DNA from: an uncultured Alphaproteobacteria bacterium
Lineage (GTDB): Bacteria; Pseudomonadota; Alphaproteobacteria; Rs-D84
NCBI GenBank assembly: GCA_947646585.1
Contig: CANSHD010000001.1
Location: forward strand, 248,617 to 312,616
Reading direction: 5' to 3'
Length of the DNA stretch: 64,000 bases
Shown: positions 366-39,548 of the stretch, in pieces
Layout: each line of letters begins with the position of its first letter
How positions within the stretch are numbered: position 1 is the first letter of the stretch
Translations under genes and position numbers: made by a program
Notes under the pieces: generated by a model
Told to the model about the DNA's origin: nothing
The model's input: the letters and a program-made list of their open reading frames with translations, nothing else
Databases searched by the model: none

Positions 366-975
366 GGCTCTGTTTCTTTGTTTTCTGTGCATGGTGCTGC
401 CGAACGCGGCGCGCGGCGAAGACGACTGCATGGCATATAAAATCCGGCCGCGAATAACGGTGTCCGCCCCGGAATGGACCAAGCAGGTGGTGCAGCCGTT
501 AAAAGAAATGGATTTGCTGCACGGTGACGTGATTGCGACGCTGGTTGACAATTACGACATAACAGGCGACGTCACAGGGATAGAGGACGGATTCTGCGTG
601 TCTTTGAAATCCGTGGCCGCAACCGTCGGGTACAGTGATTTCTTGGTTCAGATTGACATGCGTCATGTACCCGGCACGTGCACATACAATGCCGTTTTAT
701 CGCACGAGGACGAGCATATCCGTGCATACATGTCCATCATCAATGATTTTCAGACGGAACTGCACGATGCGATTTATGCGGCGGCGGATTCGGTAATGCC
801 CGTCTTTGTTCGCAATGAAGAGGATATAGACACCGCACTGGACACGTTGAACAAGAATCTGCAGTCGCACCCCGACGTTATTTTGGTGAAGCAAAAGATT
901 CGCGCGGCCGAGGAAATAAGGAACAAGCGCGTGGATGAAAACGACGACGGCGCGCGTCTGAAGCAGTGCATGTAA
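358..975 (+). CDS. secreted hypothetical protein with HExxH motif (SHEDEH); putative small metallopeptidase-like protein
   Basis: N-terminal hydrophobic signal-like segment MYKALFLCFLCMVLPNAARG; HEDEH motif; 205 aa. Confidence 0.5.
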   Translation: MYKALFLCFLCMVLPNAARGEDDCMAYKIRPRITVSAPEWTKQVVQPLKEMDLLHGDVIATLVDNYDITGDVTGIEDGFCVSLKSVAATVGYSDFLVQIDMRHVPGTCTYNAVLSHEDEHIRAYMSIINDFQTELHDAIYAAADSVMPVFVRNEEDIDTALDTLNKNLQSHPDVILVKQKIRAAEEIRNKRVDENDDGARLKQCM

Positions 976-21022: not shown

Positions 21023-22236
21023 CCTTTAACGATATTTTCAAGGAATCATGGCTGTCGGTGTCCGGGAACAAAATGCGCTCGTTTTTGACGGTTCTGGGTA
21101 TTGTTATCGGTGTTATGGCGGTGGTTATAATGGTTGCCGTCGGCGAAACGGTCGAGCGCCAGATTACGGACCAGTTTTCGGCACTGGGCACCAATACGAT
21201 TATGATTCGCGCCGGCGCGGCCCAGACGGGCGGTGTTCGCACCGGAAACCGCCAGACGTTGACGATTGACGACGCGGAATATATCGGCCGCCTGCCCGAC
21301 GTTATGGCGGTGTCGCCGGTGCAAAGCAGCGGCGCTCAGATAGTATACGGAAACAAAAACTGGTCATCGGTTATGTACGGCGTATACCCCGATTATACGA
21401 CTGTTCAAAACATTGAAATGGACAAGGGTACGTTTTTTGACCAGGCGGCTGTTCGTAATGCGTCCACATACGCGGTAATCGGCCCCACGACGGCAAAAGA
21501 GCTGGACTTGCCCGCTGACCCCGTGGGCCAGGTAATCCGCGTCCAGAATGTTCCTTTTGTTATTATTGGCATGACCAAGGAAAAGGGCGATTCCGGAATG
21601 GGGTCCCAGGACGATATGTTGCTTGTACCGATTACCACGCTGAAAAAGCGCGTCCAGGGCAGTCGATTCCCCAACGCGGTCAGTACGATTGGCATGAAAC
21701 TGTACCCCGATGCGGACAACACCGTTGTCACGAATCAGATAACCGCCCTGTTGCGCGACCGTCATAAATTAAAGGACGACGCGGCCGACGACTTTCAAAT
21801 CATGGATATGAAACAGGTGATGGAGACGATGAGCACCGTCACCGGATACATGAAAATGCTGTTGATTGCGATTGCGGCGGTCTCGTTGCTGGTGGGCTCC
21901 ATCGGCATTATGAACATGATGCTGGTGTCCGTTGCGGAACGTACGCGTGAAATCGGCGTGCGCAAGGCCATCGGCGCGCGCGAGCGTCAGATAATCATTC
22001 AGTTCCTGTCCGAATCGATATTTATATCGTTTATCGGCTCTATGGCGGGATTGTTGCTGGGTGTCGGCCTGTCCCAGGGTGTGGGGCGCTTTATCATGGG
22101 CTATAACGTGCCGTTTTCGGCCTGGCCGGTTGTGCTATCGGTATCGGTTGCGGTAATTGTTGGCCTGGCGTCCGGTGTTATGCCTGCATTAAAGGCGGCA
22201 AAGCTGAACCCGATTGACAGTCTGCGCTATGAATAA
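21019..22236 (+). CDS. MacB/FtsX-type ABC transporter permease
   Basis: N-terminal TM + large periplasmic domain + C-terminal FtsX-like 3-TM bundle (..RKAIGARERQII..). Confidence 0.88.
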   Translation: MTFNDIFKESWLSVSGNKMRSFLTVLGIVIGVMAVVIMVAVGETVERQITDQFSALGTNTIMIRAGAAQTGGVRTGNRQTLTIDDAEYIGRLPDVMAVSPVQSSGAQIVYGNKNWSSVMYGVYPDYTTVQNIEMDKGTFFDQAAVRNASTYAVIGPTTAKELDLPADPVGQVIRVQNVPFVIIGMTKEKGDSGMGSQDDMLLVPITTLKKRVQGSRFPNAVSTIGMKLYPDADNTVVTNQITALLRDRHKLKDDAADDFQIMDMKQVMETMSTVTGYMKMLLIAIAAVSLLVGSIGIMNMMLVSVAERTREIGVRKAIGARERQIIIQFLSESIFISFIGSMAGLLLGVGLSQGVGRFIMGYNVPFSAWPVVLSVSVAVIVGLASGVMPALKAAKLNPIDSLRYE

Positions 22237-22268
22237 AAAACGGCGGATATTCCGCCGTTTTTATTTTA
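22237..22268. terminator. bidirectional terminator (macB permease / Cys-rich gene)
   Basis: aaaaaacggcggatattccgccgtttttatttt. Confidence 0.8.
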
Positions 22269-22773
22269 CATAATGACATTTGTCGGTGTATGTAAATCTG
22301 CCCCCGGCGTCTGTCCCGGTTGTCCCCGCCGGCAGATAGCATTCCGTTATTGATGCCGCGCCGGTTGAATCCGTCGTGCCGGCAACGCCGCCGGATCTCG
22401 GGCACGCGGTGCATGATGCGGCCGCGGCGGCATTGTTATATCTCCCCTGGGCGCATGGCTTGCATGACGTCAATGTGTTGTCCGCCGCCGAATAGTACCC
22501 CGCCCCGCACGCATTGCACGTGCATGTGGATGTATTGCCGCTGGATTTGTATCCGGCATTGCATTTGCATCGATATGATGTTGTCGCGGTCGGACAGCAG
22601 AGTGTCGTGGTGTTGATGCCGTCGCATTTGGGGCAGTGTTTTGATTGGCGCACGCCGTTGCTGATTGGGCTCCACATATCCATCCAGTCGTTGTTAAGTG
22701 CCGCCAATGCCGGGCATGCGTTCGGCCACGCCGCCGCGCCGATACATATGCATGTGATGATTGATTTTCTCAT
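22261..22773 (-). CDS. secreted cysteine-rich repeat protein (ephrin-receptor-like / GCC2_GCC3-like CxxCxxGxY...CxxCP units); paralog of 47228-47835
   Basis: signal peptide; ~20 Cys; C-terminal block CTACPRSGG..ITECYLPAGT..FTYTDKCHYVK aligns with CTRCPSSGG..ITSCYIPSGT..TYTGDCYYKN of 47557 ORF. Confidence 0.6.
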   Translation of the reverse strand: MRKSIITCICIGAAAWPNACPALAALNNDWMDMWSPISNGVRQSKHCPKCDGINTTTLCCPTATTSYRCKCNAGYKSSGNTSTCTCNACGAGYYSAADNTLTSCKPCAQGRYNNAAAAASCTACPRSGGVAGTTDSTGAASITECYLPAGTTGTDAGGRFTYTDKCHYVK

Positions 22774-22796
22774 GATTTCAATTCCCTTTTGTTTTT

Positions 22797-22827
22797 GTTA
22801 AACAAAAACCGCCGTTGGAATTGGCGG
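22797..22827 (-). terminator. hairpin + U-run in the 5' leader of the Cys-rich gene (attenuator-like)
   Basis: minus-strand ccgccaattccaacggcgg followed by tttttgttt; ~20 nt upstream of SD/ATG. Confidence 0.4.
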
Positions 22828-23111
22828 TCGGGGATTGAAAAAATCATATATAGAAATGACCCTGCGATTTTCGGGCGTGCCCTGTTGTATAATCGCAGAC
22901 CCCCGACCGGTTTGGTCGGGTTGCAAAAAACAGCGGTGCCAATGCACCGACGTTTTTAGTCGGATTTACAATGCAAACATGTGTTCGCACCGTCTCTATA
23001 AAGGATTTTTCAAGTCCCGAAGCCACATCCGTTGTGTCTTCGAACAAATTGTTGCAAACACGACACCTTTTTACAAGAAAAAACATTTGTGTATTGACAA
23101 AAAGATATTAT

Positions 23112-23140
23112 GTGCTACCTTTTTGATAAAAAGGTAGCAC
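23112..23140 (+). promoter_or_regulatory. near-perfect 13-bp-arm palindrome abutting the radical-SAM start codon
   Basis: gtgctaccttttt-gat-aaaaaggtagcac ends 1 nt before ATG 23141; candidate operator or RBS-sequestering hairpin. Confidence 0.5.
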
Positions 23141-24133
23141 ATGAATTTTATGCCGATTTATCAAAAATATTTGGCGTGGCGCGACCGCCATTTCCCCATG
23201 GGGAACATACTGCGTCATACGCAGTATGTATTGGTGTTCAAAACAACAAATTATTGTTGGTACCGGTGCCCGCATTGCTGTGAATGTTCGGGGCCGAATA
23301 ATCCGCGGACATTTATTCCGGTCCGTACCATATGCTCTTATTTGGACCAGGCGCATGCCGACCCGTCATTTTCAAACAACGTTGTGTTTACAGGCGGGGA
23401 AATCATGTCGGCATACCGCTTTGGGCCGGCCGATTACGTGCCGACATTATTGAATCACAGTCTGGATTTGGGCATCGGTACGGATATAAAGACCAATGCC
23501 GCATGGGTGCGCGCCGGATTTGGCGAGGGGATATTTCAGGATTTGCATCACGTAATATCGTCACATAAACCGTATTCGTTGCAGATATCGCTGTCGCTGG
23601 ACAGGTATCATAAAAATGCGTTGGAAAACAACGCCGCGGTGATATCGCGCCTGGCCAAAATGCCAAACACAAACGCCATCGTCCATGTATCCGGATTTAA
23701 TAACCATGTTGACATGTTTCCGGCATTGTTGGAGCGGATTAAAGCAAACGGTCTGAAAATAGATGAGGTTTTATGCGGCTCTGCTGGAAAAATTTTACCG
23801 CGTGTCGGCGGCCGGATTTTGTTGCAGTATTCAAAGGGAACGCTGTTTGACGGCGGGCGTGCGCGCGACATGGAATGGGCGCATCATTCGGAATTTCCGC
23901 AGTTTCAGTTTTTAACCGCCGACGGCATGTCTTTGATTGCGTTTGACAGCGCGGGTCGTGTAACGCTTGGCGAAAATTCAGGCCGCAAAATATCGACATC
24001 TTTTTTGATGCGTAAGAATTTTAATGTATATCTGAAAAATTTGTATCATATTCGCGCCGATTTGGTTAAGGCCACATGGCGCGAGGAGACGCGCGCCCGC
24101 CTGCTGGATGGCTGGCGTTTTAACGAGCGATAA
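23141..24133 (+). CDS. radical SAM domain protein of unknown function (no SPASM/twitch Cys cluster)
   Basis: CxxxCxxC at TTNYCWYRCPHCC; glycine-rich SAM motif VVFTGGE; IKTNA motif; 330 aa. Confidence 0.7.
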   Translation: MNFMPIYQKYLAWRDRHFPMGNILRHTQYVLVFKTTNYCWYRCPHCCECSGPNNPRTFIPVRTICSYLDQAHADPSFSNNVVFTGGEIMSAYRFGPADYVPTLLNHSLDLGIGTDIKTNAAWVRAGFGEGIFQDLHHVISSHKPYSLQISLSLDRYHKNALENNAAVISRLAKMPNTNAIVHVSGFNNHVDMFPALLERIKANGLKIDEVLCGSAGKILPRVGGRILLQYSKGTLFDGGRARDMEWAHHSEFPQFQFLTADGMSLIAFDSAGRVTLGENSGRKISTSFLMRKNFNVYLKNLYHIRADLVKATWREETRARLLDGWRFNER

Positions 24134-39155: not shown

Positions 39156-39548
39156 ATATCATTATTTGCTGATATACGCTTGGCTTTTTATTTTTTGCGA
39201 TAATTGAATTATATTCAGACTCGGTTTCCAAATCCATTGCATTGCACATAATGTATATCGGTATGTCGGCATGGATTCTGGCGGCCTCTATGCGTTGCCC
39301 GGTCAGCATCTGAATTCCCCCGTGATTTTATAAAGAAAAAACCATCGGAATAAAATTCAGATGGCTGGAGGTTCACTACTATAATCAGCTATAGCGTCGC
39401 TTATTCAATATATTCGCGACCCTCCAGCCAGTGGTTGGAGATTTTCTGTTTTTTACAAACAGGCTGAAAAGGGGTAGCGAACCCCGCCCACGGAATACCC
39501 GCCGGCAAATATATTATATATTGAATAAAAACAATTTGCAAATAATTA

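Follow-up and report, generated by a model that had tools for sequence, protein, structure and literature searches.

A two-part leader RNA with an sRNA-Xcc1-like junction as a probable transcription attenuator of a cysteine-rich protein gene in an uncultured alphaproteobacterium

Several described RNAs bear on the locus reported here, a structured region upstream of a gene for a cysteine-rich (Cys-rich) protein in a 64,000-nucleotide (nt) stretch of DNA, hereafter the window, from an uncultured Alphaproteobacteria bacterium (GenBank assembly GCA_947646585.1, contig CANSHD010000001.1, positions 248,617 to 312,616). The closest is sRNA-Xcc1 (Rfam RF02221), an integron-encoded and trans-acting RNA of Xanthomonas campestris, which has the same three-way junction, with an AUACAA internal loop, an inner hairpin and a helix P3. 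The Xanthomonas member has been mapped as an 88-nt RNA that starts at the closing helix of this junction, P1, with a size of ~88-100 nt by Northern blot and rapid amplification of cDNA ends (RACE) (PMC2996969), and the copy in enterohemorrhagic Escherichia coli (EHEC) is abundant and poorly covered by ribosomes (PMC5331693). In the searched literature, of which the coverage is incomplete and which may thus miss an earlier description, sRNA-Xcc1 is treated as trans-acting, and a 5′ domain, long-range pairings or an attenuator role are not described. Related in arrangement are the phage immunity modules P4 CI (seqA/seqC), P1/P7 c4 (a1b1/a2b2) and Gifsy-1 IsrK (STnc1160), the mechanism of which has been summarised (PMC4825925). 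Moreover, in the zipper-type attenuator cATT of pLS20, the 5′ side of the terminator pairs with a strand that lies far upstream (PMC13401043).

In the window, we identified on the minus strand a predicted leader RNA of ~245 nt (~23041 to 22800) that holds all the hairpins listed below. It probably serves the Cys-rich gene as a cis-acting transcription attenuator, in which alternative folding would set whether transcription stops before the gene. Its parts, from 5′ to 3′, are as follows.

23048-23076, minus strand: leader promoter, predicted, with -35 box TTGTAA (23076-23071), a 17-nt spacer and -10 box AACAAT (23053-23048)
23019-23041, minus strand: H1, first hairpin, GAAGACAC / GUGGCUUC
23003-23018, minus strand: H1b, hairpin closed by GGA/UCC, with the loop UUGAAAAA (23013-23006) as address segment PK2a
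22994-23000, minus strand: PK1a, address segment UAUAGAG, in the linker just 3′ of H1b
22968-22993, minus strand: H2, hairpin ACGGUGCGAA / UUUGCAUUGU
22925-22949, minus strand: T1, first terminator-like element, hairpin CGGUGC-AUUG-GCACCG (22949-22934) and then CUGUUUUUU (22933-22925)
22914-22920, minus strand: 5′ strand of H3 (anti-P1), CCCGACC, which repeats the P1 3′ strand and can pair with the P1 5′ strand
22826-22908, minus strand: three-way junction like that of sRNA-Xcc1, made of P1, P2, P3 and J3/1
22908-22899 / 22835-22826, minus strand: P1, closing helix of the junction
22898-22891 / 22869-22862, minus strand: P2, stem CUGCGAUU/AAUCGCAG, with the conserved AUACAACAG and an inner hairpin (22882-22873)
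22861-22842, minus strand: P3, with the loop PK1b at 22853-22847
22842-22835, minus strand: J3/1 (PK2b), UUUUUCAA
22800-22829, minus strand: T2, intrinsic terminator GACCGCC-AAUUCCAAC-GGCGGUU followed by UUUGUUU
22261-22788, minus strand: putatively regulated gene, Shine-Dalgarno (SD) sequence AAGGGA (22788-22783) and ATG at 22773, for a 170-amino-acid (aa) secreted Cys-rich protein (Pfam Ephrin_rec_like)

The junction matched RF02221 over the whole model (minus strand 22908-22818, model positions 1-87 of 87) with 48.3 bits, corresponding to E = 1.8e-7 in a search of 701 nt and to 1.7e-5 for the whole window across 4227 families. This was the only significant match in a permissive Rfam scan, and no riboswitch family was among the matches. 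The score lies under the gathering cut-off of 53 bits, and the match is absent from a scan at gathering thresholds; likewise, relative L152 (L-numbers denote related loci) scored 49.2 bits, and none of 20 metagenomic relatives tested reached the cut-off. Furthermore, the Rfam three-way junction also emerges as the minimum-energy structure of 22790-22912. From sequence and predicted fold we regard the window element as a sub-threshold member of the sRNA-Xcc1 family, in agreement with the small RNA that a preliminary description of this DNA had offered as an alternative to an attenuator. Canonical members also lie just upstream of a co-oriented gene (symE in Xanthomonas integron cassettes, an ORF6N gene in APSE) and also have a 5′ domain with both complementarities found here; unlike them, the window copy scores under the cut-off, carries the T2 U-run after P1 and precedes a surface-protein type of cargo. 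The Rfam model covers the 87-nt core only, and the conserved 5′ half and the overlap of the junction with the terminator appear to be previously undescribed.

The folds available to the 3′ half exclude one another, since T2 begins with the GACC that ends the P1 3′ strand, an overlap of 4 nt. When the P1 5′ strand (22908-22899) pairs with the P1 3′ strand (22835-22826), T2 is reduced to a 3-bp stump; when it pairs instead with H3 (stem CCCGACC/GGUCGGG, 22920-22914 with 22908-22902), T2 is a 7-bp stem followed by its U-run. On a 128-nt 3′ segment the two states are nearly equal in energy, H3 + T2 having -41.7 kcal/mol vs -40.4 for P1, a difference of 1.3. The copy of the P1 3′ strand that forms H3 (CCCYGAC within 30 nt upstream) gives at least 7 contiguous base pairs in 56/77 family members vs 17/154 control windows, and H3 is 88.9% paired on the family alignment (A10). 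The alternative pairing that the preliminary description had proposed to look for in the leader was found in this form, and the stem that it had listed at 22901-22920 turned out to be H3, the alternative partner of the P1 5′ strand. A terminator between the structure and a co-oriented open reading frame (ORF), together with mutually exclusive pairings that involve this terminator, is the arrangement of terminator-controlling leaders.

The positions of promoter and gene fit this arrangement. The leader promoter ends 6 nt before H1, the first conserved hairpin, and the RNA is predicted to start at G 23041; at the equivalent position, L022 and L020 have TTGCAA-N17/18-CATAAT and L056 a clear TTTACA-N18-TATAAT, and in 39/60 members a distance of 6-7 nt separates the end of a sigma-70-like promoter from H1. 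The U-run of T2 ends 26 nt before the ATG at 22773, and these 26 nt contain no usable promoter, the sole promoter-like match there having its -10 box over the start codon. The claim that the promoter of the Cys-rich gene must lie upstream of a terminator is supported computationally, and the promoter between T2 and the ATG that would have spoken against it does not fit in the available space.

The 5′ half holds two short segments complementary to the core, which we call address segments. The alignment fold of the window with L075, L022 and L020 predicted a helix between 23018-22994 and 22853-22835, with compensatory changes. One part, PK1, joins UAUAGAG (22994-23000) to the P3 loop (22853-22847), which reads CUAUAUA in the window, with one G·A mismatch, and CUCUAUA, without it, in L075 and L081; in other lineages the same positions pair as UAUUGUG/CACAAUA, AUUCGUC/GACGAAU and CAGAAAC/GUUUCUG. 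On a structure-blind alignment, PK1 was 84% paired with compensatory changes in 6/6 pairs, and PK2, formed by the H1b loop and J3/1, was 89.8% paired (5/8 pairs compensatory). PK2 can be prolonged into GGG:CCC of the P1 3′ strand, invariant in 39/39 members. A complement of the P3 loop of at least 6 nt was found ~70-90 nt (or ~30 nt) upstream of P1 in 62/77 members vs 14% of mismatched controls, and one of J3/1, likewise 6 nt or longer and placed 1-14 nt to the 5′ side of the P3-loop site, in 67/77 vs 19%; both together and with the right spacing were present in 68/77 members vs 21/1540 mismatched controls. These sequences are highly diverse, with 60 distinct P3 loops and with 60 and 39 distinct sequences for the two long-range helices.

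The family was sampled with a covariance model of the core and a degenerate-pattern scan of metagenome contigs, which gave 107 loci; the model confirmed 98 matches, equivalent to 82 distinct copies, mostly metagenomic. Among 63 related loci, blastn of the spacer found L022 and L020 only, and nhmmer with the covariance model was needed to detect L056, L039 and L078, where the profile search revealed full-length copies, each with its own pairing-site sequences. In 75 distinct members the core helices were 94.4% paired with compensatory changes in 20/24 pairs, matched by 0/500 shuffles, on an alignment fitted to the model. To this we add a MAFFT alignment of 39 full-length members made blind to structure, from which RNAalifold recovered PK1, PK2, H2, T1, H3, P2 and T2 unaided. 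On it, P1 was 96% paired and T2 99.6%, with GC/AU covariation at one pair, and all helices together beat 500/500 shuffles and every slid control. The family H1 (GAAUCCAAA-GGGA-UUUGGGUUC) was 87% paired, with 3/7 pairs compensatory on a structure-agnostic alignment, H2 was 94.9% paired (6/6), and the hairpin equivalent to T1 82.6% (6/6). The conserved unpaired nucleotides are AUACAACAG, the GGGA loop and AAUCCG. Moreover, an intrinsic terminator follows the core in 80/82 members, and in 79 its first 2-5 nt also belong to the P1 3′ strand.

In the window, T1 is a hairpin with a run of six U residues, and L022 shows a compensatory U-A to C-G change in it. A U-run of at least 5 follows T1 in only 16/77 metagenomic members, and in 6/6 phage copies. 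Two terminators in series within the leader had been described for this locus, which holds for T2 in nearly all of the 82 members, and for the first of them in this lineage and the phage copies rather than as a general trait of the metagenomic relatives. A short RNA of ~117 nt, terminated at T1 and carrying both address segments, would be expected.

Other pairings and a processing motif were considered. A pairing of the T2 loop with the SD region (CAAUUCC:GGAAUUG, present in the window, L022 and L152) was not enriched in the family (33% vs 30%) and is not taken as a general trait, and one between the GGGA loop of H1 and a UCCC in the T2 loop was unconvincing (22% vs 13.5%). For a trp-style attenuator at T1, the pairings of the H2 3′ strand with the T1 5′ strand and of the H2 5′ strand with the T1 3′ strand were possible in 78-81% of cells, which is not above column-shuffle controls. 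An RCCA of the RNase P type after P1, present in only 31/82 members, is suggestive of processing at most.

Six phage copies matching the Rfam consensus were compared, two of which were re-scored, both above the cut-off: Aaphi23 (86.1 bits) and the Shiga toxin (Stx) phage P13374 (79.6 bits). The remaining four are those of Acinetobacter 4316, Moraxella Mcat15, E. coli PA28 and Pasteurella Pmp3. All lie 40-90 nt upstream of a co-oriented gene, which is ant or KilA-N in five and encodes a hypothetical protein in Moraxella Mcat15; in Aaphi23 the RNA comes just after the Q antiterminator gene. In 6/6, a hairpin loop and an adjacent strand 60-130 nt upstream are complementary to J3/1 and the P3 loop, for instance GCUCAAAA:UUUUGAGC with GCAAGUAG:CUACUUGC, or ACUAGA:UCUAGU with CUUCAAAG:CUUUGAAG; equal scores were obtained in 0-5 of 200 shuffles. 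A hairpin with a U-run follows this 5′ domain in all six. In four of the six (L190-L195), the loop of the T1 terminator has a CCCG-type motif (e.g., cacccgtcagac and cgcccgacagac) that resembles the alphaproteobacterial anti-P1 strand CCCGAC.

Downstream of the RNA, 46/76 members have an ORF of 60 aa or more, preceded by an SD sequence, that begins no more than 60 nt from the core, and in 16 more the distance is 61-160 nt; the median gap between terminator stem and start codon is 30 nt. Of 63 distinct downstream products, 48 showed a signal-peptide-like N-terminus in a crude hydrophobicity test. Pfam families among them are Chlam_PMP autotransporters (8), family-2 glycosyltransferases (4), Ephrin_rec_like (3) and Listeria-Bacteroides repeats (3), besides outer-membrane-protein (OMP) beta-barrels, Opacity porins, YadA anchor, WbsX, RgpF and PAP2, so the predicted functions are mostly those of the surface or envelope. 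The Cys-rich products of the window (22264-22340, minus strand), L022 (2448-2744), L152, L144, L085 and L084 share the C-terminal motif CY(I/L)PxG(T/S)xGxDxxGxFxYxxxC(Y/H)Y and differ in the rest.

We propose that transcription runs from the leader's own promoter (~23041) to T2 (22800), across a 5′ half (23041-22925) and a 3′ half (22908-22826). RNA polymerase would read into the Cys-rich gene only when P1 closes and takes 4 nt from T2, the gene being expressed by T2 read-through, and with H3 paired T2 would stay intact and transcription would terminate. Which fold forms would depend on whether the 5′ address domain pairs with the core, either in cis or from the T1-terminated isoform in trans. 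Such pairing probably favours termination (H3 + T2), because it can take in the CCC of the P1 3′ strand as well. In cis, the 5′ domain would be able to affect T2 and not T1, because its partners are transcribed later, and the ~117-nt RNA could act in trans on read-through transcripts. The only candidate partner found as a trigger is the RNA's own 5′ domain; no leader peptide is present.

Other explanations account for part of these data. In the published view of sRNA-Xcc1, the element would be a free-standing gene for a trans-acting small RNA with its own promoter and terminator, the downstream gene being incidental or served by leaky read-through. The Xanthomonas RNA of ~88-100 nt seen by Northern/RACE (PMC2996969) and the abundant EHEC copy with low ribosome coverage (PMC5331693) agree with it, as do the strength of T2, the presence of the RNA without a downstream ORF in L020, and the highly variable address sequences, which resemble determinants of RNA-RNA recognition. 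However, the sequences that pair with these variable segments are on the same transcript, the downstream gene has no space in front of it for a promoter of its own, and a co-oriented start codon stands a median of 30 nt past the terminator stem in 62/76 members and in 6/6 phages. We judge a free-standing small RNA quite improbable as the whole explanation, while a terminated or processed product of an attenuator could act in trans as well, and the two are not exclusive. An ON riboswitch is unlikely too; in it, the pseudoknotted junction would serve as the aptamer, and binding of a small molecule or second messenger would close P1 and block T2. In its favour are the size of the fold, with multiple helices, pseudoknots and unpaired nucleotides that are conserved (AUACAACAG, the GGGA loop and AAUCCG), the overlap of P1 with the terminator as in known ON switches, the nearly equal energies and the mainly surface/envelope downstream genes; regulons of this kind are seen with cyclic-dinucleotide riboswitches. 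Yet the cargo is heterogeneous (autotransporters, glycosyltransferases, pilins, phage anti-repressors, symE) and suggests no single metabolite, the 60 and 39 sequences of the long-range helices suit an address code better than a binding pocket, and phage and alphaproteobacterial members do not have the same expression platform.

Two further explanations carry little weight. An RNA for processive antitermination of the HK022 put or Bacillus EAR type, which would modify the polymerase to pass downstream terminators, is suggested by the position at the start of surface/polysaccharide operons and, in Aaphi23, after the Q gene, but the conserved overlap of P1 with the next terminator and H3 point to a local structural switch, and the Rfam scan gave no match to such elements; we consider it very unlikely. 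That the hairpins are unrelated, i.e., bidirectional terminators and chance stems in a divergent spacer of patchy AT/GC composition, would be in line with T1 reading as a terminator on the plus strand also. It is extremely improbable in view of folding z values of -5 to -7, an identity of 98-100% that exceeds that of the flanking coding genes, and covariation in 82 relatives, the last two being the conservation whose absence would have spoken against the preliminary description. As far as computation shows, both of its ideas, attenuator and small RNA, are supported.

Several points weigh against the attenuator that we favour. H3 varies mainly on one side (C to U) and its partner strand is nearly invariant, because of which its covariation support is weak, and P1 and T2 overlap by 4 nt only. 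The phage copies are without the T2 U-run, and the family thus has no single expression platform. The search pattern fixed parts of P1 and of the AUACAACAG loop, which biases the sample to this subfamily. L020 keeps the RNA without T2 and without a gene, as expected of an independently functional RNA or of a decaying remnant, and the mapped Xanthomonas RNA of 88 nt (PMC2996969) and the abundant EHEC RNA (PMC5331693) fit a stable small RNA. Finally, the transcript start, the stops and the read-through in this organism are predicted from its DNA sequence.

The likeness of this attenuator to P4 CI, P1 c4 and IsrK lies in a terminated upstream leader segment with two short complementarities to a structured RNA downstream in the same transcript. 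The upstream segment ends in a terminator as in P4 CI-type modules in the window and in 6/6 phages, the U-run being present in 16/77 metagenomic members, and the pairing sequences vary between elements like the heteroimmunity determinants of the phage RNA modules. In those modules the structured RNA stands ahead of an anti-repressor operon, whereas here it precedes a chromosomal surface-protein gene, and the core fold differs from C4 and isrK. C4 (RF01695) and isrK (RF01394) gave no matches up to E = 10 in 22600-23300, and both were found elsewhere in P13374, in which an isrK-C4 module and the 5′-domain/Xcc1 module lie side by side. For a second downstream target like a2b2 or seqC, located at the ribosome-binding site or close to it, a complement of the P3 loop of at least 6 nt was present in 17% vs 6% of controls, a weak signal, and one of J3/1 in 32% vs 20%, which base composition could explain. 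As in ON riboswitches and in pLS20 cATT, a large closed structure and the terminator exclude each other; unlike in these, a dedicated anti-P1 copy (H3) is present, as are two further long-range pairings that covary, and there is no sequence relationship.

We tentatively extend this reading, on a footing that we regard as somewhat doubtful, to sRNA-Xcc1 as a whole, which, rather than being a free-standing RNA, may form the 3′ half of an RNA switch that is widespread and built in two parts, and may represent a third structural class of the P4-CI/P1-c4-type immunity module. In this switch, an address RNA next to the promoter, often with a terminator of its own, would pair by two element-specific sequences with the three-way junction and thereby control termination ahead of the next gene. 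Phages would use it for their anti-repressor genes, and gut Alphaproteobacteria would have taken it over for variable surface-protein genes, with private codes preventing cross-talk between copies in one cell. If true, an Rfam family that has for 15 years carried the annotation of a trans-acting small RNA linked to virulence, with a range of Xanthomonas, Xylella, EHEC and Stx phages, and APSE, would be part of a cis-acting leader, and its model would miss over half of the conserved structure and a large alphaproteobacterial subfamily. The switch would then be a common RNA control device of uncultured, Enterousia-like gut Alphaproteobacteria that fronts adhesins, autotransporters, O-antigen-type glycosyltransferases, pilins and Cys-rich secreted proteins, with a bearing on surface variation in the gut. 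Since phage copies precede anti-repressor genes, also in tractable Stx-converting phages, the model would be directly testable and would bear on prophage induction.

The RNA lies in the spacer 22774-23140, between the minus-strand Cys-rich gene (22261-22773) and a plus-strand radical-SAM-like gene (23141-24133). The preliminary description had taken the whole spacer as densely structured; this stood for ~22800-23041, the extent of the structured RNA, and not for 23043-23140, which is much less conserved and contains the leader promoter together with the promoter and palindrome of the divergent gene. All four stems that it had listed are present on the minus strand in their places, the one at 22863-22898 being P2 (22898-22891 / 22869-22862); the gene-proximal hairpin GACCGCC/GGCGGUU with its U-run exists, at 22829-22800 instead of 22797-22827. 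The 187-nt minus-strand leader before the ATG folds with -68.4 kcal/mol vs -45.7 +/- 4.3 for shuffles (z = -5.3; 0/200 as good), and for the whole 367 nt z is -7.3 vs shuffled sequence. Terminator-like sites in 22100-23400 number 9, vs 2.5 +/- 1.5 expected in shuffles (~3.6x). Nucleotide identity to L075 and L081 is 98-100% over 22774-23042, 83-85% over 23043-23140, 92-95% in the Cys-rich gene and 71-92% in the radical-SAM gene, the sharp drop at ~23042 coinciding with the promoter-like site.

Homologues of the radical-SAM protein belong to uncultured gut Alphaproteobacteria close to Candidatus Enterousia, and most relatives have the radical-SAM gene ~55 bp behind macB. With respect to these, an 857-bp block (22237-23093), comprising a terminator, the Cys-rich gene, the RNA and its promoter, is by sequence comparison an insertion. 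It is patchy among relatives, being carried by the window and identical strains, L075, L081 and L022, the last with two Cys-rich genes. No direct repeats were evident at its borders in comparison with L012 and L013. The macB/radical-SAM junction is a hot spot of insertion, with gaps of 925 bp in L019, 183 in L024, 1825 in L028, 1825 in L030 and 2070 in L055, in which the covariance model found no RNA copy. In L078, a compact copy (718-880, minus strand) with both address pairings and without the H2/T1 region lies inside the spacer between macA and the ATP-binding-cassette (ABC) gene of an efflux operon, upstream of a 67-aa ORF without a signal peptide.

Contigs of the same assembly with two or three copies were L100/L121 (OIZA01), L089/L129 (OJAW01), L084/L091/L146 (ERZ777306) and L115/L141 (ERZ808259). 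Such copies differ in their address sequences and front different genes, which fits several non-cross-reacting copies per genome, under the assumption that they come from the same genome. In addition, tRNA genes lie 0.2-2 kb from the RNA in 5/20 scanned metagenomic loci (L141, L130, L104, L140 and L166), and a tRNA-Cys gene ~5 kb from it in the window; this proximity may reflect integration sites of islands, or coincidence. In a scan of viral contigs the pattern matched once (L189), without confirmation by the covariance model.

The radical-SAM-like gene (23141-24133) has a CX3CX2C motif and a weak PF04055 match. Its nucleotide identity to L081 3001-3981 is 71%, though the flanking genes are 91-99% identical between the strains, and it is a local hypervariable gene or a recombination patch. 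It is preceded by the promoter-like TTGACA-N16-TACCTT (23094-23144, plus strand), and a perfect 17-bp palindrome (23108-23144, plus strand) spans its -10 box, SD and ATG. The palindrome looks like an operator or a hairpin sequestering the translation start, separate from the leader RNA, and the arrangement is retained in L012, L013 and L014, where the RNA insertion is missing. A perfect 11-bp inverted repeat, ACATACTGCGT-CAT-ACGCAGTATGT, lies within the 5′ end of the coding region (23205-23229, plus strand).

Elsewhere in the window, a weak model match at 39363-39429 (minus strand, E = 0.04) is without the AUACAACAG loop and was therefore assigned to a different family. The surrounding 39350-39440 (minus strand) contains another three-way-junction-like structure, CUGGCUGGAGG ... 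CCUCCAGCCA around two hairpins, followed by a U-run.

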